Source: Elusimicrobiales bacterium (lineage in GTDB: Bacteria; Elusimicrobiota; Elusimicrobia; Elusimicrobiales; UBA9959). From it: a DNA stretch of 64,000 bases. The notes beneath the pieces were generated by a model. The model was not told the DNA's origin, made no database searches, and worked only from the letters and a program-made list of their open reading frames with translations. Position 1 is the first letter of the stretch; each line of letters begins with the position of its first letter. This document shows, in pieces, positions 1,834 to 58,064 of this stretch. The stretch is from contig JBFXJL010000002.1 of the NCBI GenBank assembly GCA_050174915.1, forward strand, positions 195,626 through 259,625, given 5' to 3'. The position numbers and the translations under genes were made by a program.

Positions 1834-2215
1834 AGACCGCGGACGGAGGGCCGCTCTTCCCGCAAGGGGAGGGAGGAACTTCCGAACTTCACAGGGCAAG
1901 GTGCCGGTTCAAACTTCGCAGCATTATATGAGCGGAGCATAGGCCGGGAGGCGGGGGCTATATCCCCCGTCGACGGAGAGCGCCACAGAGAACATACCGC
2001 CCGCAAGGGTAAGGGTGAAAAGGTGCGGTAAGAGCGCACCGCGTCCGCAGAGATGCGAACGGCAATGCAAGCCCCTCCTGAAGCAAGGCCAAAGTTGCGC
2101 GATGGACTGCCCGTCCGCCCCCTCCGGGGGGCAGCGCAGAGTGGGCCGCAATAGATAAATGGTCCTCCAGGCGCCGCAAGGCGCCGGACAGAATTCGGGG
2201 TACAGTCCGCGGTCT
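1834..2215 (+). ncRNA. rnpB: RNase P RNA, bacterial type A
   Basis: P1 pairs AGACCGCGGAC (1834-1844) with GTCCGCGGTCT (2205-2215). GGTAAGGGTGAAAAGGTGCGGTAAGAGCGCACCG (2008-2041) and ACAGAATTCGGGGTA (2188-2202) match the conserved RNase P core when read against E. coli M1 RNA from memory. The overlapping track ORFs (1661..1942, 1924..2340, 2159.. N-terminal part) are therefore discarded. Confidence 0.88.
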
Positions 2216-2251
2216 AATAAATTTGGACTACCCGGGAAAAAGGGGAAACTT

Positions 2252-2613: not shown

Positions 2614-3570
2614 ATGAAGAAAGCAATATTCGCGGCGCTCGTGATAACGGGCTTTGTCGCCGCGGCCAGCGCCCAGGTGAATTTTAACAAGGGCGTAGAC
2701 GTGCAGGACTTTGTCTCCCAGGCTGTCAATTCGGACCTGGTGATCCCGGCCGCGCCGGCGCCCAAGATCGGCCACTACAGCCGCGACTGCGCCCGCTTCT
2801 CTTTCGGCCCCAGCGACAAAGAGCTGGTCAGCGAGAGGGTGTACCTGCGCAGCACCGAGTACGAGACCGTCTGCCACACGCAGATGGTGCAGCAGTGCCA
2901 CACCGTCATGGTGCCCGGCCCCAACGGCACGCAGGTGGCCCAGCAGAAGTGCCACATGGTGCCGCAGCAGTACTGCTACGAGCGCCCCGGCATGACCTGG
3001 ACCCAGGCCGGCCAGATAAAGGTCAACCCCCGCAAACTGCTCCCCTGGGAGCGCGAGAGCTTCGAGATCTGCCTGCAGGGCCCCTGGATGGACCTGTATA
3101 TCAACGCCGCGGCCTATAAGTACACCGCCCGCCGCGAGGGCAACTACGACACGCTCTTCGAGCTGGCCCCCCAGTACAAGGTGGCCATGAAGGCCGACGA
3201 GAACGGCCTCAACTACGGCGACTTCTCCTACGCGGGCGGCAAGTTCACCTTCAAGGTCAACGACCGCTGGGCCAAGGAATACGCCGGCGAGAAGGTCTCC
3301 ATAAAGATCGACCTCTGGCGCGACGGCGCCTGGATCTTCAACGGCTACAAGGGCTCCAAGGAATTCACTTTCGACGCGGCCGAGGGCTACACGATGACCT
3401 TCGACGAGAAGGACCTCGAGAAGGCCGCCGCCGAGGACGACGCCTACCGCGCCGGCGACGACCGCGGCGCCAAGAAGTACTTCCTGAAATGGGGCTTCAA
3501 GCGCGTGGGCGCCATCTCCAGGGACAACTTCGTCAAGAAGGACAAGACCCCCACCATCGAAGCCAAGTAA
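2614..3570 (+). CDS. secreted hypothetical protein
   Basis: The MKKAIFAALVITGFVAAASAQ signal peptide begins at the internal ATG 2614 of ORF 2554..3570. A GGAGGAAACAG RBS is present. The protein contains several cysteines. No family recognised. Confidence 0.6.
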   Translation: MKKAIFAALVITGFVAAASAQVNFNKGVDVQDFVSQAVNSDLVIPAAPAPKIGHYSRDCARFSFGPSDKELVSERVYLRSTEYETVCHTQMVQQCHTVMVPGPNGTQVAQQKCHMVPQQYCYERPGMTWTQAGQIKVNPRKLLPWERESFEICLQGPWMDLYINAAAYKYTARREGNYDTLFELAPQYKVAMKADENGLNYGDFSYAGGKFTFKVNDRWAKEYAGEKVSIKIDLWRDGAWIFNGYKGSKEFTFDAAEGYTMTFDEKDLEKAAAEDDAYRAGDDRGAKKYFLKWGFKRVGAISRDNFVKKDKTPTIEAK

Positions 3571-3704: not shown

Positions 3705-4829
3705 ATGAAAAACAGCTTTGGTATACTTCTTTGCGCGGTGGTGTTCTGCGCTACAAGTACGTATGCCGCCTCCGATAAAACCCTGCTTTCAGCCCGTGAA
3801 TCCATACTTTCCGGTTCAGTCTCACCGCGGGACGTTCTTCTTAAGTATTCAGAAGCCGTAAAGAAGACCAACGCGGCCCCCGTACTCGGCGAATACGCCT
3901 ATGCCCTCGCTTACGCCGGGCTCGGCGAGGCCGCCCTGACTTCCATAGACCGCGCCCTGATAGCCGAACCTCTCCACCCGGAAATACGCTTCTACCTTTC
4001 AGAGATCTTCAACGCCGCCGGCCTGGAGGCAGCCTCCGAAGAGATATCCGCTACGGCCCCGTCCTGGCTTAAGGGAAGACAGGTAAAACTTCCGAAGCTC
4101 GACGTGGCCGCCCCTGCCGGGGACTTTGAGGCCGCCTCGGTTTCGCTTAATATGCTGATGGCCCAGAGGCGCTACGCGCAGGCCGCGGTGCAATACGACC
4201 GGCTATGCAAAGCCAACCAGGCTGAGCCGCGCTGCCATGTGGGCTACGCGCTGGCCCTGGAGCGCCTCGGCGCCTACAAGGCCGCGTCGGCCGAGGCTTC
4301 AAAGAACCTCGCTCTCTACAAGGACCCGGAACCGCAGGCTATAACCAGGGCTTTCATCGATGATCTGAACAAGCGGCCCCCGTTGAAACTGTCCTCCGAA
4401 GATAAACCGACACTGAAAGGCCGTTATCTGCTCTTCACCGGCGGCAGCCTGAACCGGGCCGACGACCGCACCCTGTATTCTTTCAGCACCCGCGTGGGCA
4501 AGTTCCTGAGCGAGCGCATCGACGTCTCCGCCAACGCTGCCATCAACGGCGGCAACGCTGTGTCCGACTACAACGGCCTCACGCTGGGCGCGGTGGGGCG
4601 CTACAATATCCCTCTGTCCTTCTTGCCGCTCAATCTTACGCTGGCCGCCAAAGGCGAGCGCGTCCCGGCGCCGGAGAAGAACTTCACCTTCCTGCTATCG
4701 CCGGGTCTTAGCTATTTCATCAAGGACAGTTCTGTAGACCTTTTCTTCGACTTGGCCCTGAACGGGCCTTATAGCGGCAGCGTCACCATGTCGCTGGGCT
4801 ACACTATTTACTTCGGGGTGGGTAAATGA
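3705..4829 (+). CDS. secreted protein, helical TPR-like N-terminal half and beta-rich C-terminal half (putative outer-membrane protein)
   Basis: 374 aa. Signal peptide MKNSFGILLCAVVFCATSTYAAS. The N-terminal half is Ala/Leu-rich repeat helices. The last ~150 aa show alternating-hydrophobic beta-strand patterns ending ...SLGYTIYFGVGK. The stop overlaps the next ATG (ATGA). Confidence 0.6.
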   Translation: MKNSFGILLCAVVFCATSTYAASDKTLLSARESILSGSVSPRDVLLKYSEAVKKTNAAPVLGEYAYALAYAGLGEAALTSIDRALIAEPLHPEIRFYLSEIFNAAGLEAASEEISATAPSWLKGRQVKLPKLDVAAPAGDFEAASVSLNMLMAQRRYAQAAVQYDRLCKANQAEPRCHVGYALALERLGAYKAASAEASKNLALYKDPEPQAITRAFIDDLNKRPPLKLSSEDKPTLKGRYLLFTGGSLNRADDRTLYSFSTRVGKFLSERIDVSANAAINGGNAVSDYNGLTLGAVGRYNIPLSFLPLNLTLAAKGERVPAPEKNFTFLLSPGLSYFIKDSSVDLFFDLALNGPYSGSVTMSLGYTIYFGVGK

Positions 4830-17126: not shown

Positions 17127-19091
17127 TTAAGCCCCGTCTTCCTTCTTCTCCCCCGGCTTGCCGGGGTTTTTTATGTCCGGATTCCTGGCGAAATCCTGGA
17201 ACTTCGACGTAAGTACGGCCGCGCGCTTGACGGCCTCCACTATCCTGGAAATTTCCTTCTTGATCGGGCTCGAGGCGGGCAGGTCCTCGTCTATCAGCGT
17301 GGCGTAGCCGTTGATGGCGGCCAGCGCGTTGTTGAAGTCGTGCGCCATCGGCCTGGCCACGTTGCTCACGGCCTCGGCCGCGTGCGCGAGGGCCAGCTCG
17401 GTCTCCATGCGCTTGAGGTCGGTGATGTCGCGGGCTATGCCCAGCAGGCCTATGGTCTCGCCGCGCACGTTCTTGAGCGGGGTCTTGATGATGTTCACGT
17501 GCCGGCTGCCGCCGGGGAAAGGGTGGTAATTATACAGCGAGAGAGTCTTGCCTTTCAGCACCACTTCGCTGTCGGTGCGGAACACGCCGGCCGCGGTCTC
17601 GGGCGGGAAATAGTCGGAGTCGGTGCGGCCTATCATGGCCTCCGGCGTGGTGCCCATCATATCCGCGCTGGCCTTGTTGGCCTTCACGTACATGCCGTTC
17701 ATATCCTTGATGAAGATAGCGTCGGCGGCCGTGTCGAAGACCATGCGCATCATGGTCTCGCTTTCCTTGAGCAGGCGCTCCGTCTCCTTCTGGCCGGTCA
17801 CGTCGCGGATAACCCCGGTAATGTAGAGCGGTTTGCCGCTTTCCACCACCACGCCGCTCTTCTGTTCGGCGTAGGCGTAGCTGCCGTCCTTCCTGCGTAT
17901 GCGGTAGGGCAAAATGGGCAGTGTGCGCCCGGTCTTGACCGCGTTGGCCCAGGCTTTCATGATAAAGTCCCTGTCGTCTGGATGGGCGAACTCCAGGATG
18001 GAGCGGCCGATCAGCTCCTCCGGGGTGTAGCCGTAATCGGCGGCTTGCGGGCTGATATAGGTGAGCCGGCCGGTGAGGTCGGCGGTATAAATGGTGTCCT
18101 TGGTCGACGAGATGATGGTCCTGAACCGGGTATCCTCGTCGCGCTGGCGGTCCTCCGCCTCTTTGCGCTGCAGGATCATGGCGTAGACGCGGGCCAGTTT
18201 CTGCGCCGCGTCCAGGTCCTCCGGGGCGAAGTCGCGCTGCGGGTTGGCCAGCGCCAGCATGCCCAGCAACCGGCGCCCGGACAGCGCCGGCACGCCCAGA
18301 AACTTTTCTATCTTCATGTGGCCCTGCGGCAGGCCGGCGGCGCGCTTGTCCGAGGCCGCGGCGTTGGTGAGCAGCGGGCGCTTGCGCTTGAGCACCCAGC
18401 CCCAGAGGCCTCTGAAGTTAGTGAATATCACCGGCTTGTCTTTGACCGGGCATTTGTCCCAGGCGTCCGAGGTGAGCGAGGCCATCGCCATGTTCCCCGA
18501 GGCGTCTATGCAGCCGGCAAAGCCCAGCGAGCTGCCGGTCAAACGGCGGGCTTCGTCGAGCACGGCGCGGGAGATCTCCTCTATGGAGATGCCGGGGAAG
18601 GAGAGATAGAGTTCTTCTATATGTTTGAGCGAGGAGGCCAGGTCCTTTTCCCGGCGCAACTCGGCGTCGCGGGTCTCATTTACCAGGCGGGCGCCTATCA
18701 CCTTGGCGGCCAGCTCCACCAGGGCTGACGCCGCGCGCGGGCAGGGGGGCGGCTTGGTGACCAGCACCGAGATGCTGCCGGCCCGGGCGCTGCCGGCCTT
18801 TATGGCGTGCGAGAAATAAATAGCCTTGCTGCCGTGCGAGGCGGCCTGTGCCATGCGCTCCAGATCGGTCTTACGGCAGGCCGGGCAGACGTTGATCGGC
18901 TGGCGGCCGCGAGCGCCCTTGAGTGTAATGGCTACCTTGGCGCTGTCGCAGATCCCGTCCGGGCCTGACAGCAGGCGGGCTATTTTTTTAAGAAAAGGTT
19001 CCAGGTTGTCCGGGGCCAGCGCCGTCTCCAGCATGAGCGGGAGGGCCTTGCCGAGGGCCTCCATATCCTTGCCGGTGACGGTTTTCTTCAT
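17127..19091 (-). CDS. GAF-GAF-PAS-PAS sensor ending in a HisKA (DHp) domain, with no HATPase_c domain
   Basis: 654 aa. The H-box MAHDFNNALAAINGYATLI is ~70 aa from the C-terminus, and the protein ends right after the DHp helices. No N/G1/G2 ATP-binding boxes are present. Confidence 0.75.
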   Translation of the reverse strand: MKKTVTGKDMEALGKALPLMLETALAPDNLEPFLKKIARLLSGPDGICDSAKVAITLKGARGRQPINVCPACRKTDLERMAQAASHGSKAIYFSHAIKAGSARAGSISVLVTKPPPCPRAASALVELAAKVIGARLVNETRDAELRREKDLASSLKHIEELYLSFPGISIEEISRAVLDEARRLTGSSLGFAGCIDASGNMAMASLTSDAWDKCPVKDKPVIFTNFRGLWGWVLKRKRPLLTNAAASDKRAAGLPQGHMKIEKFLGVPALSGRRLLGMLALANPQRDFAPEDLDAAQKLARVYAMILQRKEAEDRQRDEDTRFRTIISSTKDTIYTADLTGRLTYISPQAADYGYTPEELIGRSILEFAHPDDRDFIMKAWANAVKTGRTLPILPYRIRRKDGSYAYAEQKSGVVVESGKPLYITGVIRDVTGQKETERLLKESETMMRMVFDTAADAIFIKDMNGMYVKANKASADMMGTTPEAMIGRTDSDYFPPETAAGVFRTDSEVVLKGKTLSLYNYHPFPGGSRHVNIIKTPLKNVRGETIGLLGIARDITDLKRMETELALAHAAEAVSNVARPMAHDFNNALAAINGYATLIDEDLPASSPIKKEISRIVEAVKRAAVLTSKFQDFARNPDIKNPGKPGEKKEDGA

Positions 19092-19092
19092 G

Positions 19093-19779
19093 CTATTCGA
19101 ACTTGTAGCCGTGGCCGGGCACGGCTTTGATCCGCTTGCCCAGCGTGCCGATCTTGCGGCGCAGGTTGGAGACGTGGACTTCCACGGTGTGGGGGTCGTT
19201 GTAGTCGGCGGTATTGTAGCCCCAGACCGCCTCGAGCAGGCTATTGAGGCTGAGCACCTTGCCCGGCTTGGAGGCCAGCGTGTGCAGCAGGTCGAATTCC
19301 TTGGAGGTGAGCTTTACCGGCTTGCCCTTAATCTTGATCGTGCGGCCTTCCAGGTTCAGCTCCAGGTCGCCCGCTTTGAACACGGAGGCCTTCTTCTTGC
19401 CGCGGGCGGCCCGGCGCAGCATGGCGCGCACCTTGGCCAGCAGCACCGGGTAGGAGAAGGGCTTTACCACGTAATCGTCGGCGCCGTAGCCGTAGCCGGC
19501 CACCTGGTCGGCTTCGGAGATCTTCTTGCCGGTCATGATGATGACGGGGATGTCGGCTAGCACTTTGTTCTCTTTGACGCGGCGGCACAGCGTGAAGCCG
19601 TCCATGCGGGGCATTTCCACGTCGGTTATGATGATGTCGGGTTTGCCGGCCGGGGCGGCGGCCAGGGCTTCGGCGCCGTTGGCGGCGGAGATCGTCTCGA
19701 GGCCGTGGTTCTCCAGGTATTTCCTGAGGATACCGAGCAGCTCCGTGTCGTCGTCCACTATGAGGGCGCGCTCTTTCAT
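19093..19779 (-). CDS. OmpR-family response regulator
   Basis: The start was moved to MKERALIVDDD (ATG 19779). The receiver domain (DD...D...K) is followed by a winged-helix domain (LTSKEFDLLHTLA...HVSNLRRKI...GYKF). The upstream part of track ORF 19093..19956 overlaps a terminator-like hairpin. Confidence 0.85.
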   Translation of the reverse strand: MKERALIVDDDTELLGILRKYLENHGLETISAANGAEALAAAPAGKPDIIITDVEMPRMDGFTLCRRVKENKVLADIPVIIMTGKKISEADQVAGYGYGADDYVVKPFSYPVLLAKVRAMLRRAARGKKKASVFKAGDLELNLEGRTIKIKGKPVKLTSKEFDLLHTLASKPGKVLSLNSLLEAVWGYNTADYNDPHTVEVHVSNLRRKIGTLGKRIKAVPGHGYKFE

Positions 19780-19793
19780 AAAGTGATTATAAT

Positions 19794-20030
19794 AAAAAAA
19801 AAGAGCCCCGCCGGAACATTCATGGTGAGATACGGTTGCCTTACGAAGGAGTCTTACCTGTTGTCGCCCGGCGGGGCTTAATTTAGCCAGCGCTGCAGGT
19901 GCTAGAGCACGGGGCCGAAGCCCTGTGTCTTGGGGGTTTGGGTTAGGGGGGCGCACCGTACAGCGCTGGGGATCGTTGTGCCGCTAGGACTTGCCTTCGC
20001 GGACCTTTGTAAAGAGCTGGTTGCTACACT
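19794..20030 (-). ncRNA. candidate structured sRNA, copy 1 (RR-proximal)
   Basis: All evidence is on the minus strand. TTGAGC (20065-20060)-N17-TCATAT (20042-20037). The conserved core is CCAGCGCUG...CAGCGCUGG, enclosing GGUGC/GCACC, a C(UUCG)G-capped hairpin, and a single-stranded CCCCCCUAACCCAAACCCCC. It ends with a 10-bp GCCCCGCCGG/CCGGCGGGGC stem (19877-19805) followed by U9. Confidence 0.4.
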
Positions 20031-20088
20031 AGAAGTATATGAAAAGCCGTTCAAGAAGCGCTCAAATCTGTCTCAAGAGCCGCTCAAC

Positions 20089-20318
20089 AAAAAAAGGGCC
20101 CCGCCGGAATATCTGGTCGCCTGACAGGGGCCTTATAGAGGGAGAACACTGTTGCCCGGCGGGGCATTAAAATCAGACCAGCGCTGCAGGTACTAGAGCA
20201 CGGGGCCGAAGCCCTGTGTCTTGGGGGGTTTGGGTTAGGGGGGCGCACCGTACAGCGCTGGAGATCTGTTGCCGTAAACTTGCTGACTACGGCTTGTTTA
20301 AAGAGCTAACCTGACACT
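20089..20318 (-). ncRNA. candidate structured sRNA, copy 2 (distal)
   Basis: TTGAAC (20353-20348)-N17-TATTAT (20330-20325). The core is nearly identical to copy 1 (one substitution, one indel). The same terminator stem (20165-20098) is followed by U7. The flanking hairpins differ in sequence but not in position. Confidence 0.4.
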
Positions 20319-20439
20319 TAAAGTATAATAAAAGCCGTTCAAGAAGCGTTCAAATCCGGCTCAAGAGGCGCTCAATACTTTAAAAGGCCTTTCTCCGACG
20401 GGCGGGGGAATAATATAATAGTGTTTTAGTCCGAATGTC

Positions 20440-22515
20440 ATGACTTCCATACAGTTCCTGAAAGGCGTGGGCCCGAAAAAAGCCGAACTTTTCGGCCGCC
20501 TCGGCATAGAGAGCCTGGACGATCTGCTCTTCTATTTCCCGCGCGGCTGGGAGGACCGGCGTCTGCCCGCCCGGCGCGAGCCGCTGGCCTGCCTGGAACC
20601 CGCCCCTATAATAAAAGGAAAGATAAAGTCAGTGCGGGACCTGTATACCTCCAGCCAGCTGCGCATCTTCAAGACCGTGGTGGAGACGCCCTACGGGGAG
20701 GCCGAGGCCAGCTTCTTCAAGCGGCACAGCCCACGCTTCGACGTCTTCGCCCCGCTGCGCAAGGATCTTAAAGAGGGCCGTGTCGTCTGGATAACCGGTA
20801 CCCCCGAGGACCCGCTTTTCGTCAGCCGCCTGCGGGCCGACGAATATTACGCCGACGACGACGCCCGCGCCCTCAAAATGCACGTGGGGCGTATAGTCCC
20901 GGTCTACCCGCTCACCGAGGGGCTGACGGCCAGGTTCATGCGCGAAGCGGTCTATGAGGCCGTGCAGGCCGGGCACGAGGCCGTGTGGGACTTCCTGCCG
21001 CCGGTCCTGGCCGCCCGCAGAGGGCTTATAATGCGCCCGATGGCCGCCCGCGCCATACATTTCCCGGAGAACAATTTCGAACTGGCCGCCGCCCGCCGCC
21101 GCTTCATCTACGAGGAACTGCTGCTGATGACGCTGGCCTGGGCGCTCAAGAAGCGCCAGACCAGGAGCGTGCTGAAGGGCTTCACCTACGAGATAAAGAA
21201 GACCCTGCTCACGCCTTTCAGGGCCAACCTCGGTTTCCAGTTCACCGCCTCGCAGGCGCACGCCATAAACGAGATCTTTACCGACATGCAGGCCCCCACC
21301 CCCATGGCCCGCCTGCTGGAAGGCGACGTGGGCAGCGGCAAGACCGTGGTGGCCCTGAGCGCCATGCTGCTGGCGGCCGAGAACGGCGGCCAGAGCGTGT
21401 TCGCGGCCCCCACCGAGATCCTGGCCGAACAGCATTACCTCACTTTCGAGCGCTTCCTGAAGGGCCTCGGCCTGCGTTTCGCCCTGCTGACAGGCCGCAT
21501 GAAAGCCGCTGAAAAGAAAAAGATCCTGGCCGACCTGGCCGACGGCAAGATAGATATACTGCTGGGCACCCACGCCGTCATCAGCGACGGGGTGAAGTTC
21601 AGGAACCTGCGGCTGGTGGTCATAGACGAGCAGCACCGCTTCGGCGTGCGCCAGCGCGCCGCCCTGCGCGCCAAGGGCGACCGGGCCGACATGCTCATCA
21701 TGACCGCCACCCCCATACCGCGCACCCTGTTCCTGGCCATGTACGGGGACCTGGACCTCTCCGTGCTGAAGGAGCTGCCGCCGGGCCGCAAGCCCATAAA
21801 GACCACCGAGGCCGACGAGGTGACCGCCTTCGCCGCGGCCAAAGAGGAAGCGGCCAAGGGGCGGCAGGCGTACATCGTCTACCCCGTCATAGAAGAGACC
21901 GTCGAGGCTGACATGAAGTCGGTAAAGGCCGAATTCGAGCGGCTCAAAGTCCTTTTCCGCGGCAAAAAAGTGGACATGCTGCACGGCCGCATGCCCGGGG
22001 AGCTGAAAAAACAGGTGATGGACGATTTCGCCGCCGGCCGCACCGACATTCTGGTGGCCACGCAGGTGATAGAGGTGGGCATAGACGTGCCCAACGCCAC
22101 CCTGATGGTGATAAACAACGCCGAGCGCTACGGCCTGGCCAGCCTGCACCAGCTGCGCGGCCGGGTGGGCCGCGGCCGGCACGATTCCCGCTGCCTGTTG
22201 GTGGCCCACGCCCGCGCCGGCGACGCCGCCGAGCGGCTGCGCGCCATGGTGCAGAGTTCCAACGGCTTCGAGCTCAGCGAGAAGGACATTTACATACGCG
22301 GCGCCGGCGAGATACTTGGCCTTCGGCAGCACGGCGATATGGAATTCAAGATAGCCGACATGTCGCGCGACGGAGACGTGCTGGCCCAGGCCATGGAGGA
22401 CCGCGAGGCCGTTCTGGCCGCCGACCCCGACCTGGCCGCCCCGGAGCACCGAGGCCTGCACAAAAAACTCCGCGACCTCTACGCCGCCCGCTGGAACCTG
22501 ATAGACCTGTCCTGA
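20440..22515 (+). CDS. recG: ATP-dependent DNA helicase RecG
   Basis: 691 aa. Wedge domain followed by an SF2 helicase core (GDVGSGKT Walker A, DEQHRFG, TATPIPRT, QLRGRVGRG). Confidence 0.9.
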   Translation: MTSIQFLKGVGPKKAELFGRLGIESLDDLLFYFPRGWEDRRLPARREPLACLEPAPIIKGKIKSVRDLYTSSQLRIFKTVVETPYGEAEASFFKRHSPRFDVFAPLRKDLKEGRVVWITGTPEDPLFVSRLRADEYYADDDARALKMHVGRIVPVYPLTEGLTARFMREAVYEAVQAGHEAVWDFLPPVLAARRGLIMRPMAARAIHFPENNFELAAARRRFIYEELLLMTLAWALKKRQTRSVLKGFTYEIKKTLLTPFRANLGFQFTASQAHAINEIFTDMQAPTPMARLLEGDVGSGKTVVALSAMLLAAENGGQSVFAAPTEILAEQHYLTFERFLKGLGLRFALLTGRMKAAEKKKILADLADGKIDILLGTHAVISDGVKFRNLRLVVIDEQHRFGVRQRAALRAKGDRADMLIMTATPIPRTLFLAMYGDLDLSVLKELPPGRKPIKTTEADEVTAFAAAKEEAAKGRQAYIVYPVIEETVEADMKSVKAEFERLKVLFRGKKVDMLHGRMPGELKKQVMDDFAAGRTDILVATQVIEVGIDVPNATLMVINNAERYGLASLHQLRGRVGRGRHDSRCLLVAHARAGDAAERLRAMVQSSNGFELSEKDIYIRGAGEILGLRQHGDMEFKIADMSRDGDVLAQAMEDREAVLAADPDLAAPEHRGLHKKLRDLYAARWNLIDLS

Positions 22516-23416: not shown

Positions 23417-23438
23417 AAAGGCCCGCCTGTCAGGGCGT

Positions 23439-23474
23439 AAAAAGGCCCCGCGTCGTGCGACGCGGGGCCTTTTT
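23439..23474. terminator. bidirectional intrinsic terminator
   Basis: A5-GGCCCCGCGTCG-TG-CGACGCGGGGCC-T5, lying between convergent genes. Confidence 0.7.
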
Positions 23475-23485
23475 CCTTCCCTCCT

Positions 23486-23965
23486 TTAGAAGGCCGACCA
23501 AGGGGTGGTGATGGTGTCGCTGCCCCGCCCCTTTATGTCTTCATGCGTGCAACTGACCTGGAAGTTGCCCCAGGTGGTGGCGACGTTGGGATCGCCGAAG
23601 TAAGCCCAGCCGCCAACGTCGGAGACAGCGGCGCCGGAGGCCACAAGGACCACGGTGCGGATGTCGGCGTGCGCGGTGCCCGGCAGTTTGGCCACGGGTA
23701 TCTCGGCGATGTACTTGGCCTGGTCCGTAAGACAGCTCAGGACGGACCCGGCCGCCTCAGTGTTGGACGGGAACCAGCCTTCGTTGTCGCCGTAATACAC
23801 CTGTATGGCGCTGCGTACCGAGGAGAGCGCGCCCTTGGTGGCGCCCTCTTTCGACTTGTTGATGAGGTCGGCGAACTTCGGTATGGCTATCGCGGCCAAT
23901 ATACCGATGATCGCTACGACTATCATCAGCTCTATCAGGGTGAACCCCTGCTTCATCTTTTTCAT
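23486..23965 (-). CDS. type IV pilin / pseudopilin (prepilin N-terminal methylation domain)
   Basis: The start was moved to MKKMKQGFTLIELMIVVAIIGILAAIAIP (class III signal, G/F cleavage, E+5). An AGGAGG RBS lies upstream of ATG 23965. Confidence 0.85.
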   Translation of the reverse strand: MKKMKQGFTLIELMIVVAIIGILAAIAIPKFADLINKSKEGATKGALSSVRSAIQVYYGDNEGWFPSNTEAAGSVLSCLTDQAKYIAEIPVAKLPGTAHADIRTVVLVASGAAVSDVGGWAYFGDPNVATTWGNFQVSCTHEDIKGRGSDTITTPWSAF

Positions 23966-35275: not shown

Positions 35276-35502
35276 TGACGGTCACCGTAAAGCTGATCGG
35301 CCCGCTGATCTACGAGGGGGGCTTCAGCGAGAAAGTGCTGGAACTCCCCGGGCCGATGACGGCCGGGAAGCTTTCGGCTTTCGTGAAGATAGATAAAAAG
35401 CGGCCCACCATCATGACCCGCAACGGCCGGGCCGTGGCCGCCGCGGAGACCATAGAGGACGGGGACCGCGTGGTGATCTCGCATATTTATTCGGGCGGTT
35501 AG
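35275..35502 (+). CDS. MoaD/ThiS-family ubiquitin-like sulfur carrier
   Basis: 75 aa, from the internal ATG of ORF 35131..35502. Beta-grasp-like sequence ending in ...ISHIYSGG (C-terminal Gly-Gly). Overlaps the upstream gene in a TGATG arrangement. Confidence 0.65.
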   Translation: MTVTVKLIGPLIYEGGFSEKVLELPGPMTAGKLSAFVKIDKKRPTIMTRNGRAVAAAETIEDGDRVVISHIYSGG

Positions 35503-35510
35503 GGGGAGAC

Positions 35511-36937
<1,427 letters not shown>

Positions 36938-36938
<1 letters not shown>

Positions 36939-39177: not shown

Positions 39178-39252
39178 TGGTGCGCTCGACAGGAATCGAA
39201 CCTGTATAACCGCCTTCGCAGGGCGGGACTCTATCCGTTGAGATACGAGCGC
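39178..39252 (-). tRNA. tRNA-Arg (anticodon GCG), CCA encoded
   Basis: 75 nt. Acceptor stem GCGCTCG/CGAGCGC. Anticodon stem CCGCC/GGCGG with loop CTGCGAA. T arm ACAGG-TTCGATT-CCTGT. 3' ACCA. Confidence 0.85.
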
Positions 39253-43359: not shown

Positions 43360-44505
43360 GGGGACGCTGATGACTATATGACTATTTGCAGGTGTTCCGG
43401 GTTTTATTGGCCTTCCTGTTCTAAAAATTTAAAAAACAACAAAATTTACCCCGACAATACGGTGTCGGGGACGTCTGCTATTCTATTCTTACGGGAAGAA
43501 GGGGGGGGATATGCCCAGACAAGCGAGAATAGACGTGCCGGGACAGGTTTATCATGTAATGTCGCGCGGTATAGAGCGCGGCAGTATCTTCCTCAGCGAA
43601 GACGATTATGTGGACTTCCGGGAGCGCATCGGCGTATGGCTTAACAAGTCTGGGGCCAAATGCCTCGCTTGGTGCCTTATGCCGAATCACTTCCACTTCC
43701 TCGTCTTGCGGGGCGAGCGGCCGCTTTCGGAACTGATGCATCATGCTATGACCGGCTATGCCATTAATTTTAACCTAAGGCATCACCGCGCCGGGCACTT
43801 ATTCCAGAATAGGTATAAGGCCATCATCTGTGACCTTGAGGAATACTTCATGGAAGTTGTGCCGTATATACACCTCAATCCGCTGCGCGCGAATCTGGTG
43901 GAAGACCTGGACGGCCTTGCCGCCTACAAATGGTGCGGCCATTGCGCGGCGGTCAGCGGAGTTGAGGATGGAATCCTTAACAGGGACGCGCTTTTATGGC
44001 ACCTTGGGGACAGTGAGGGGGCGGCGGTCGCCAGGTACATGCAGGTTATGCGTGAAAAAGCGGAAGAAATGCGCCAGAAGGATCTCTCCGGAGGCGGACT
44101 ATTGCGCAGCCTGGGCGGGAAAGGCGCCGTTCTGAGGGCTATGCGGGCCGGGGAAAAGGTTTTGTTCGACCAGAGGATACTCGGAGAGGGGGATTTTGTG
44201 GCGGCCGTACTGAGGACCGCCGGCGAAGCCATGCAGAAAGCGAAGAAAAGCCGCGCGGAAGTACTGGGCGAGGTCGCGGCGGCCACCGGCATATCCCGCG
44301 AGGACATTTTAAGGCGTACCCGGGAACGCGGCCCCGCCAGCGCGCGGGCAATTTATTGCTACCTGTGCCGGGAGGCGGCTGGCGGTTCAGCCGTGGAATT
44401 GACTGGTGAATTGGGAATAACGCAGAGCGCCGTCTCAAAGTTGGCGTCCAAAGGGCGTATACTGGCCGAAAGAATGAAAATAGTCATATAGTCATCAGCG
44501 TCCCC
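43360..44505 (+). mobile_element. RAYT-type element: Y1 transposase gene bounded by perfect 28-bp inverted REP-like repeats
   Basis: The left end GGGGACGCTGATGACTATATGACTATTT (43360-43387) is the exact reverse complement of 44478-44505. A subterminal hairpin CCCCGACA/TGTCGGGG (43449-43470) lies inside the left end. Confidence 0.8.
43511..44491 (+). CDS. REP-associated tyrosine (Y1/HUH) transposase, IS200-like fold, with C-terminal DnaA-domain-IV-like HTH
   Basis: 326 aa. YHVMSRG, the HUH motif LMPNHFHFLV, HLFQNRYKA (catalytic Tyr) and PYIHLNPLRA match COG1943/RayT. The C-terminal ARAIYCYLCRE..GGSAVELTGELGITQSAVSKL resembles the DnaA C-terminal HTH. The stop lies inside the right repeat. Confidence 0.8.
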   Translation: MPRQARIDVPGQVYHVMSRGIERGSIFLSEDDYVDFRERIGVWLNKSGAKCLAWCLMPNHFHFLVLRGERPLSELMHHAMTGYAINFNLRHHRAGHLFQNRYKAIICDLEEYFMEVVPYIHLNPLRANLVEDLDGLAAYKWCGHCAAVSGVEDGILNRDALLWHLGDSEGAAVARYMQVMREKAEEMRQKDLSGGGLLRSLGGKGAVLRAMRAGEKVLFDQRILGEGDFVAAVLRTAGEAMQKAKKSRAEVLGEVAAATGISREDILRRTRERGPASARAIYCYLCREAAGGSAVELTGELGITQSAVSKLASKGRILAERMKIVI

Positions 44506-57806: not shown

Positions 57807-57968
57807 AAGAAACTTACCTACCGGTAAATAAATTATATCAGAGCCGCCCGTGTGTGTCAACCTGCCCAAAAGGCCCAGGCGGGCCTGGGCCTTTTTCTTT
57901 CCGCCGGTTGGGCCCTATGCCTCTATTGTCTTTGGTCAAGGTTGTATAAAATAAAAAGGTAGTCGCAG

Positions 57969-58064
57969 CCCTTGTAATCCCCCGATCAGGCGGGGGAGCA
58001 TCCACCGGCGGGCCTTAACCCGCTGTAACCAGGGGAAACGAACTCCGTTCGTTTCTCTTTTTTT
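57969..58064 (+). promoter_or_regulatory. purine-riboswitch-like three-way-junction aptamer (variant pocket) plus intrinsic terminator
   Basis: P1 is CCCUUG (57969-57974) / CAGGGG (58030-58035). J1/2 is UAAU. P2 is CCCCCG/CGGGGG with loop AUCAGG. J2/3 is AGCAUCCAC. P3 is CGGCGGG/CCCGCUG with loop CCUUAA. J3/1 is UAAC. This is followed by GAAACGAAC-UCC-GUUCGUUUC and U7 (58035-58064), 12 nt before ATG 58076. Confidence 0.45.

Follow-up and report, generated by a model that had tools for sequence, protein, structure and literature searches.

Tandem small-RNA genes with a near-invariant C-rich stretch next to a two-component response regulator gene: a new RNA family of the Elusimicrobia

What is encoded between recG and the gene of an OmpR-family response regulator in an Elusimicrobiales bacterium? 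In the 64,000-nt stretch of contig JBFXJL010000002.1 analyzed here (the window; positions are counted from its first letter), the minus strand from 19794 to 20376 carries two units of about 290 bp, arranged head to tail between the regulator gene and the divergent recG. An initial annotation, made from the letters of the window, had described such a unit occurring twice head to tail. This was borne out: the direct-repeat families of the window have a spacing of 288–293 bp with core identities of 91–98%, and a pairwise alignment of the two ~300-nt units yields a mean column identity of 86%. The end of the element had been placed at 20353, but the unit actually reaches ~20376. The window has exactly two occurrences of an 18-nt C-rich string, CCCCTAACCCAAACCCCC, where 0.06 would be expected. 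Both units are structured RNA under RNA-level selection, and they represent a new RNA family of a familiar kind, that is, tandem small RNAs that are apparently driven by a two-component response regulator and that expose a C-rich stretch. The reading that we favor, with moderate confidence, is that they are trans-acting small RNAs of ~230 nt, activated by the response regulator, in which the C-rich loop recognizes a G-rich partner, most likely ribosome-binding sites.

Structure, conservation and distribution of the RNA

The fold was analyzed in a structure alignment of 79 distinct core sequences from about 45 Elusimicrobia genomes, which have one to four copies each, mostly one or two. In the RNAalifold consensus, a continuous helix of 16 bp with one C bulged out closes the core, instead of the separate helices of 9 and 5 bp that had been annotated initially. 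In this helix, 99.0% of the cells are paired, and 8 of the 16 pairs are changed on both sides, in 66 cells (e.g., A-U to G-C, C-G to U-A, or G-C to A-U). None of 500 shuffles reached these values, and when the partner columns were slid by 1 to 3 positions, just 20–50% of the cells were paired. Covariation among homologues had been set beforehand as a check of RNA-level selection, and the eight compensated pairs provide it. In addition, G-U pairs are frequent in the helix, with U-G in 70 of the 79 sequences at one pair and G-U in 47 of the 79 at another. Because these pairs would be A-C mismatches on the opposite strand, the RNA is encoded on the minus strand, as had been proposed.

The minimum free energy (MFE) folds of the two window units on this strand (−80.0 and −84.6 kcal/mol; z = −2.6 and −2.7) reproduce the elements that were noted initially, namely a 5′ hairpin, the closing helix with an unpaired C-rich stretch and a UUCG hairpin, and a GC stem followed by a U-run, whereas the plus strand folds less distinctly (z = −1.8). 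The inner hairpin adopts the same fold in all 41 distinct inner segments, which fall into two classes, a GGGGC(C)-UUCG-(G)GCCCC type and a GGUC-UYUAAC-GACC type. The C-rich stretch, CCCCCUAACCCAA(A/C)CCCCC, is near-invariant in the 79 sequences and conserved far above the flanking helices. It has the layout C6-UAA-C3-AAA-C5/6 and is unpaired in the MFE and centroid folds of both window copies. The 5′ hairpin is an optional insertion that is absent from about three quarters of the units with a locatable −10 element. Because it is dispensable in the family, it is weak evidence for selection; the initial claim of RNA-level selection thus holds by virtue of the covariation in the 79 homologues, and not by the argument drawn from this hairpin.

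The 3′ part of the unit consists of a 10-bp GC clamp followed by T4–9, found in 68 of the 80 complete units; compensatory changes are rare here, and a few upstream copies are without a terminator of their own (loci L054, L061, and L038). The family alignment shows no consensus helix in the ~55-nt interior of the clamp. The interiors contain two to three repeats of U(A/C)AG(A/G)C (UAAGAC, GUAAGGC, GUAACUC, or GUCAGGCG) and a CUCCUU segment, and they sort into conserved, recognizable types. Therefore, the interiors of the two window copies, which had been described as unrelated, are different types that share these motifs. A second functional site may lie in this interior. As a separate observation, some upstream copies carry a GC-rich structured insert of ~140 nt between core and clamp (L021, ~1290–1430; L025, ~1760–1900; L035, ~4180–4320; L044, ~3025–3160; apparently also L011 and L026), which has several hairpins, such as GAAUCCUGCG-AAAG-CAGGAUUC and CCCCGCUAUGCGGGG; the inserts of L021, L035, and L044 had no match in Rfam.

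At the gathering score, no Rfam 15 family matches the region, and with E-values up to 10, only NsiR1 (20.9 bits versus 39) and mmgR (18.4 versus 41) appear, both as terminator-only alignments. The homologous loci likewise gave no Rfam matches, in agreement with the initial statement that no described family fits. A covariance model of the family finds only the two copies in the window, with 128.7 and 121.1 bits; the next match, with 22.7 bits, is an unrelated bidirectional terminator. The GC-rich palindromic hairpin at 23423–23490, located between convergent genes with T-runs on both strands, looks like such a terminator and is a weak, spurious match of the model. BLAST searches with both units detected two copies in L003, L005, and L006, four in L004, and one each in L007, L008, and L009. 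When one genome per GTDB species was scanned with the pattern CCCCCTAACCCAAMCCCCCMA, 53 stretches were retrieved, 49 from Elusimicrobia or from metagenome-assembled genomes (MAGs) lacking an organism label, and 4 from actinomycetes. The latter are chance matches, that is, C/A-rich low-complexity tracts with no hairpin and no profile match. Searches of plasmid and INPHARED phage collections with the units yielded no match. Short open reading frames (ORFs) on the minus strand are not conserved as coding sequences because the cores of homologues differ by indels of 1 and 2 nt.

The genomic context is conserved as well. According to tblastn searches, the copies sit between recG and the response regulator gene wherever a contig holds both, with regulator identities to the window protein of 59–98%. 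The layout on the orthologous contigs is recG, a gap of 400–1400 bp in which the RNA copies lie, the regulator gene, the sensor gene, and then a convergent gene of the CCA/poly(A)-polymerase family. In four loci (L028, L039, L049, and L057), 1–3 kb separate the RNAs from the regulator gene. Assemblies often break at the array (L019/L046, L030/L047, and L026/L058). In the arrangement typified by L001, extra signaling genes are located directly upstream of the regulator gene, and some genomes (L001) encode a stand-alone HisKA-HATPase protein of 234 aa near the locus.

Promoter and response regulator

Upstream of the 79 units, the consensus is cTTGAGCggctTTTGAGCcggaTTTGAGCgattCTTGAACggcttTTGTTATACTTTaagTGTAGCA...GCTCTTTAAAAACAGATCYCCAG. 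The promoter consists of four 7-mers YTTGARC that are spaced by 4 nt, resulting in an 11-bp period, and it has no proper −35 element. The box consensus is cTTGAGCggctTTTGAGCcggaTTTGAGCgattCTTGAAC, with at least 90% conservation of TTGA in the family. A conserved TATACT follows 9 nt after the end of the last box; the −10 region, TTATACTTT, is at least 90% conserved in the 79 units, most of which have a TGn just upstream (extended −10). The pairs TTGAAC/TATTAT and TTGAGC/TCATAT, initially taken for −35 and −10 elements, are both present, and a promoter scan also called TTGAAC-17-TATTAT for the recG-proximal copy (copy 2), but the hexamers belong to the four-box arrays and the −10 element of the family, TATACT, lies 3 nt downstream. 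Four YTTGARC boxes with an 11-bp period have the format of binding sites of the OmpR/PhoB family, i.e., direct repeats with 10–11-bp phasing that overlap or replace the −35 element. In 813 kb of locus sequence, all 197 of 197 box pairs have the C-rich stretch within 260 nt downstream, and within the window the box-pair pattern occurs at the two small-RNA promoters only. As in independent intergenic small-RNA genes, there is thus a promoter at one end (in 79 units) and a clamp with a T-run at the other (in 68 of 80).

The response regulator gene has a TATAAT of its own (19791–19786), 6 nt before its ATG, and no Shine-Dalgarno motif. In most loci, TATTATAAT (TATTAT(A)AT) is conserved 5–9 nt before the regulator ATG (in the window, at 19777–19794 on the minus strand), likewise without a Shine-Dalgarno motif, and the arrangement is kept also where 1–3 kb of other genes part the regulator from the RNAs. 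The regulator mRNA is probably leaderless. Because the regulator has its own conserved promoter, even when it is distant, the RNAs are independent genes rather than leaders. The regulator is 100% identical to a protein of an Elusimicrobiales MAG, with orthologues down to ~60% identity, and all matches that carry an organism name are from Elusimicrobia. Its recognition-helix region, PHTVEVH(I/V)(S/Y)NLR(R/K)K, is almost invariant among the orthologues, which is consistent with, rather than proof of, binding to the constant box sequence. Compared with the NCBIfam equivalog models, the protein scores below every cut-off, as a generic member of the OmpR/PhoB family; some JGI records label the Elusimicrobia orthologues "ResD".

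Possible action of the C-rich stretch and its recurrence on viral DNA

In the mechanism that we propose, the phosphorylated response regulator, encoded by the adjacent downstream gene, would bind to the four YTTGARC boxes as tandem dimers, from about −60 to −22. The boxes would replace the −35 element, and binding would activate the extended −10 promoter TGnTATACT. The transcript folds into two clamp domains, as the covariation shows. In one of them, the 16-bp helix holds open a large loop whose 5′ side displays the C-rich stretch beside the small stable hairpin; in the other, the 10-bp GC clamp with its U-run would constitute an intrinsic terminator around the ~55-nt interior with the U(A/C)AG(A/G)C repeats. 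The exposed C-rich stretch would then act in trans on a G-rich partner, most likely the G-rich ribosome-binding sites of several mRNAs, such that translation would be blocked as in the cases of LhrC and RsaE/RoxS. With one to four tandem copies, gene dosage would scale the output of the two-component system. Masking of Shine-Dalgarno sequences, a pairing that the initial annotation had suggested as possible, is a reasonable hypothesis.

Several observations weigh against this mechanism. The start site, the termination and the dependence on the response regulator are all inferred from sequence, and the regulator is the presumed activator on the grounds of adjacency and site format only. The sensor ends at the HisKA phospho-acceptor domain, without HATPase_c, which bears on the route of regulator phosphorylation, and four sensor orthologues of 652–900 aa likewise have no HATPase_c (L003:4714–6672, L004:4707–7409, L007:4710–7022, and L009:4783–6834). 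With respect to targets, the translation initiation regions in the window did not pair better with the C-rich stretch than internal mRNA segments did (p = 0.63), in a test that is weak owing to the crude longest-ORF starts, and G-rich ribosome-binding sites are a minority, with GGGG in only 8 of 49 such crude regions versus 7% of internal 20-mers. The best candidate site, GGUUAGGGGG at 35497, covers the ribosome-binding site of a gene for a T2SSE ATPase of secretion or pilus systems. There, the 10 nt GGTTAGGGGG (35497–35506, plus strand) are perfectly complementary to the C-rich stretch and overlap both the stop codon of one gene and the ribosome-binding site of the T2SSE gene (35511–36938); no other exact 10-mer complement occurs outside the small-RNA genes. 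Because the site is not conserved, being absent from a 96%-identical orthologue as well as from more distant ones, it was rejected as a probable chance match. Across all locus sequence, 9-mer complements of the C-rich stretch were only self-matches and scattered G-runs. Furthermore, UAACCCAA is complementary to the universal 16S segment UUGGGUUA (as in E. coli), a match of only 8 nt that is expected by chance. Finally, the invariant contiguous stretch spans 21–23 nt, spacers included, which is longer than simple Shine-Dalgarno masking requires; a protein, or one particular RNA, would be as good a fit as its partner.

The same C-rich sequence was found on viral DNA. Scans of IMG/VR revealed four viral contigs with the stretch (L143, L151, L152, and L153), and a homologue-guided look-up added one further phage-like contig (L145). 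Each of them has a hairpin with a stem of 10–11 bp and a loop of ~22 nt that consists of CCCCCUAACCCAAACCCC(C/U)A. The stems differ and yet compensate: GCCGGGGGCG / (U/C)GCCCCCGGC, AGCCGGCGGGC / GCCCGCCGGCU, and UGCCGGGGCCC / GGGUCCCGGCA. The viral and the host RNA agree at up to 26 of 27 and 22 of 22 nt, but only within the C-rich stretch, where 18–24 nt are identical. In most of the viral contigs, a small GCUUCGGC hairpin precedes the C-rich hairpin. In L143 and L145, recombination genes follow downstream of a long conserved noncoding region, on the coding strand of which the C-rich hairpin lies; they encode an exonuclease VIII-like protein, an SbcC-like ATPase, and RecT (in L145, also RtcB). 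Rfam and tRNA searches of the viral elements were negative, and a further viral match, L150, was a chance match. Similarly, a contig of the Elusimicrobiota MAG ELA399 (L042:4385–4500, minus strand) has the same 23-nt C-rich sequence in a different hairpin, GGGCCGCG...CGCGGUCC. This element does not adjoin recG or a response regulator gene, a Prim-Pol gene lies 1.2 kb downstream, and L042 has no genes in common with the phage loci. It is a single instance that scores 31 bits with the family model, and its fold z-score is not significant. Because the same loop of 18–24 nt occurs in unrelated, covarying hairpins, the C-rich stretch appears to be a portable recognition module that acts in trans. 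The phage hairpins may mimic the host small RNA.

These observations give weight to alternatives in which the partner of the RNA is not a set of mRNAs. Under control of the regulator, the RNA might instead sequester or recruit either a protein or a single, specific partner other than mRNA. The C-rich stretch would then be a binding site, perhaps together with the U(A/C)AG(A/G)C repeats, and the phage hairpins would compete for the same factor. Because of the length of the invariant stretch, such a partner stays a serious rival, even if we judge it to be the less probable case. Not only is the conserved stretch long and contiguous (21–23 nt, with the UAA and AAA spacers included), but the largely unstructured interior of the 3′ clamp also carries short repeated motifs, the window shows no enrichment at translation initiation regions and no conserved target was found, and the sequence recurs as a plain hairpin loop in the phage-like contigs. 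Yet the analysis brought up no candidate protein, and each RNA has only one C-rich site, in contrast to the many found in classical sponges such as CsrB and RsmZ; multi-target base-pairing small RNAs, e.g., Qrr, also have long invariant pairing regions. In a more far-reaching version, which we regard as speculative and rather doubtful, the 21–23-nt loop would be a portable module with specificity for a single conserved partner in the host, be it a protein or a G-rich RNA, instead of a generic anti-Shine-Dalgarno sequence; it would be the dedicated output of the response regulator and its sensor without a catalytic domain, and phages would have copied the loop into a minimal hairpin to mimic or out-compete the host RNA.

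The units could also be a cis-acting leader or attenuator of the regulator-sensor operon, in which case the box promoter would be the promoter of an autoregulated operon and the terminator a site of conditional read-through. Two-component operons are commonly autoregulated, the last copy ends ~15–170 nt before the regulator start in most genomes, and the few upstream copies without a terminator (L054, L061, and L038) would read into the next copy. Nevertheless, a leader of this kind is quite improbable, and we rejected a leader or riboswitch: the regulator has its own conserved −10 element for a leaderless mRNA, which is kept when other genes intervene; the full promoter and terminator are repeated in tandem copies; and a strong GC clamp of 10 bp with 4–9 U behind it forms the terminator, the interior of which has no consensus helix. 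No conserved antiterminator pairing that would compete with it was found. The tandem arrangement, the copy number of one to four and the frequent assembly breaks at the array could also be explained if the units were repeats, miniature mobile elements or a neutral duplication of local origin that has no function. However, the position between recG and the regulator gene is fixed in ~45 genomes, the 64-kb window has no further copies, the plasmid and phage collections gave no matches and only the 18–24-nt loop recurs in viral contigs, and the compensatory changes together with the invariant loop indicate purifying selection at the RNA level. A mobile element, which had been named initially as a possibility to be checked, is effectively refuted by synteny and by the absence of matches, and a functionless repeat can hardly be entertained. 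We retain the trans-acting small RNA with a G-rich partner as the preferred reading.

Feature map, comparison with known systems and implications

The coordinates of the features are compiled in Table 1, in which copy 2 is the recG-proximal and copy 1 the regulator-proximal unit.

Table 1. Features of the two small-RNA units, their neighbors and the viral elements (window positions unless a locus is given; MFE, minimum free energy).
Feature	Position	Strand	Basis or remark
Copy 2 promoter, four direct TTGARC boxes, 11-bp period	20375–20370, 20364–20359, 20353–20348, 20342–20337	−	sequence and box-pair scan
Copy 2 putative −10, TATACT	20322–20327	−	initially annotated TATTAT, 20325–20330
Copy 2 predicted transcript, ~227 nt	20089–20315	−	putative start 7 nt past −10; end, U-run
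Copy 2 optional 5′ hairpin, GCCGUA...UACGGC	20271–20293	−	MFE fold
Copy 2 core domain	20178–20261	−	16-bp helix, arms 20261–20245 / 20193–20178
Copy 2 UUCG hairpin, inside closing helix	20221–20195	−	MFE fold, family alignment
Copy 2 unpaired C-rich stretch, CCCCCCUAACCCAAACCCCCC	20223–20243	−	unpaired in MFE and centroid folds
Copy 2 terminator domain	20089–20165	−	10-bp clamp GCCCCGCCGG (20165–20156) / CCGGCGGGGC (20107–20098)
Copy 2 terminator interior, ~48 nt	 	−	UAAGGC..GUCAGGCGACC type; U7 at 20095–20089
Copy 1 promoter, four boxes	20087–20082, 20076–20071, 20065–20060, 20054–20049	−	
Copy 1 putative −10, TATACT	20034–20039	−	initially annotated TCATAT, 20037–20042
Copy 1 predicted transcript, ~234 nt	19794–20027	−	ends deduced from promoter and terminator
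Copy 1 optional 5′ hairpin	19979–20005	−	MFE fold
Copy 1 core domain	19887–19969	−	closing-helix arms 19969–19953 / 19902–19887
Copy 1 inner UUCG hairpin	19930–19904	−	
Copy 1 unpaired C-rich stretch, CCCCCCUAACCCAAACCCCC	19932–19951	−	MFE fold, family alignment
Copy 1 terminator domain	19794–19877	−	clamp arms 19877–19868 / 19814–19805
Copy 1 terminator interior	 	−	UAAGACUCCUU.GUAAGGC..GUAUCUCACC type; U9 at 19802–19794
Small RNA, 5′ region			contains GCUCUUUAAAAACA segment
recG	20440–22515	+	divergent neighbor, conserved synteny anchor
OmpR/PhoB-family response regulator gene	19093–19791 (coding sequence 19779–19093)	−	Pfam Response_reg and Trans_reg_C
Sensor gene, GAF-PAS-PAS-HisKA	17127–19091	−	domain search
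Viral element, L143	6942–7053	−	
Viral element, L145	1516–1627	+	
Viral element, L151	1227–1338	+	
Viral element, L152	~6136	+	
Viral element, L153	8972–9083	−	
Diverged form of viral hairpin, L146–L148	e.g., L146:139–250	+	

Elsewhere in the window, Rfam matches were obtained for a 2dG-II purine riboswitch aptamer (57967–58037, plus strand, 74.5 bits), RNase P RNA class A (1835–2218, plus strand, 193 bits), and a tRNA (39181–39252, minus strand). At 43511–44491 (plus strand), an ORF of 326 aa joins an IS200-like Y1 transposase domain to a DnaA C-terminal helix-turn-helix domain.

The new family resembles several known systems. LhrC1-5 of Listeria monocytogenes are multicopy, LisR-dependent small RNAs, the UCCC motifs of which bind to the G-rich ribosome-binding site of lapB (PMC4132741). 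Shared features are the several near-identical small-RNA genes, the induction dependent on an OmpR-family response regulator (LisRK; in the Elusimicrobia, presumed), and the unpaired C-rich motifs. However, there is no homology in sequence or structure (no Rfam match), and the RNA described here has roughly double the length, presents a single long C-rich stretch within an internal loop closed by a clamp instead of three short motifs, and is encoded right beside its presumed regulator. For RsaE/RoxS (RF01820; Staphylococcus and Bacillus), pairing of C-rich regions with Shine-Dalgarno sequences has been proposed or shown, and the promoter has a ResD/SrrA site (PMC4409812). Again, C-rich regions and a promoter site for an OmpR-family regulator (putative in the Elusimicrobia) are the common features, whereas the Elusimicrobia RNA has no Rfam match to it even at E-values up to 10, differs in architecture, phylum and genomic context, and is associated with a response regulator below all NCBIfam equivalog cut-offs. 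The unpaired C-rich motif that defines the anti-Shine-Dalgarno class formed by RsaE/RoxS and LhrC is present in the Elusimicrobia RNA.

Adjacent, duplicated small-RNA genes with their own promoters under a two-component response regulator are also found in the OmrA/OmrB and the Qrr and RsmY/Z modules. OmrA and OmrB of enterobacteria are tandem small RNAs activated by EnvZ-OmpR, with a pairing region at the 5′ end and involvement of Hfq; the Qrr genes depend on sigma-54 and LuxO, and RsmY/Z sequester a protein via GGA motifs. In these modules, the regulator may have few or no direct targets besides the small-RNA genes, and the Elusimicrobia boxes are likewise found only at the small-RNA promoters; none of these modules shares sequence or fold with the Elusimicrobia family. 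With regard to the promoter, B. subtilis PhoP binds to four-repeat core sites at about −60 to −20. Streptomyces PhoP sites are built from 11-nt direct repeat units (PMC2275107). In PhoB/PhoP-type promoters, as here, direct repeats with an 11-bp period replace the −35 element upstream of a good −10, but the Elusimicrobia box is YTTGARC, the regulator is no PhoB/PhoP equivalog, and the sensor, a soluble GAF-PAS protein, lacks a catalytic domain.

A literature search found no report of regulatory small RNAs in Elusimicrobia. Since, in addition, no Rfam 15 family covers the region, the family appears to be the first well-supported regulatory small-RNA candidate in this phylum. It yields a clean covariance model for annotation, and interest is raised by the C-rich loop, which is invariant across genomes whose response regulators share just ~60% identity. 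That covarying hairpins of viral contigs carry the exact loop points to phages making use of the same recognition step. Should this be confirmed, phages would mimic a host small RNA, an unusual situation and one that concerns a phylum in which very little has been studied, and a new sequence signal would be available for phage-host assignment. The readable circuit, consisting of a sensor, a response regulator, a four-box promoter and one to four small-RNA genes, offers an entry point to post-transcriptional control and signaling in a largely uncultured lineage.

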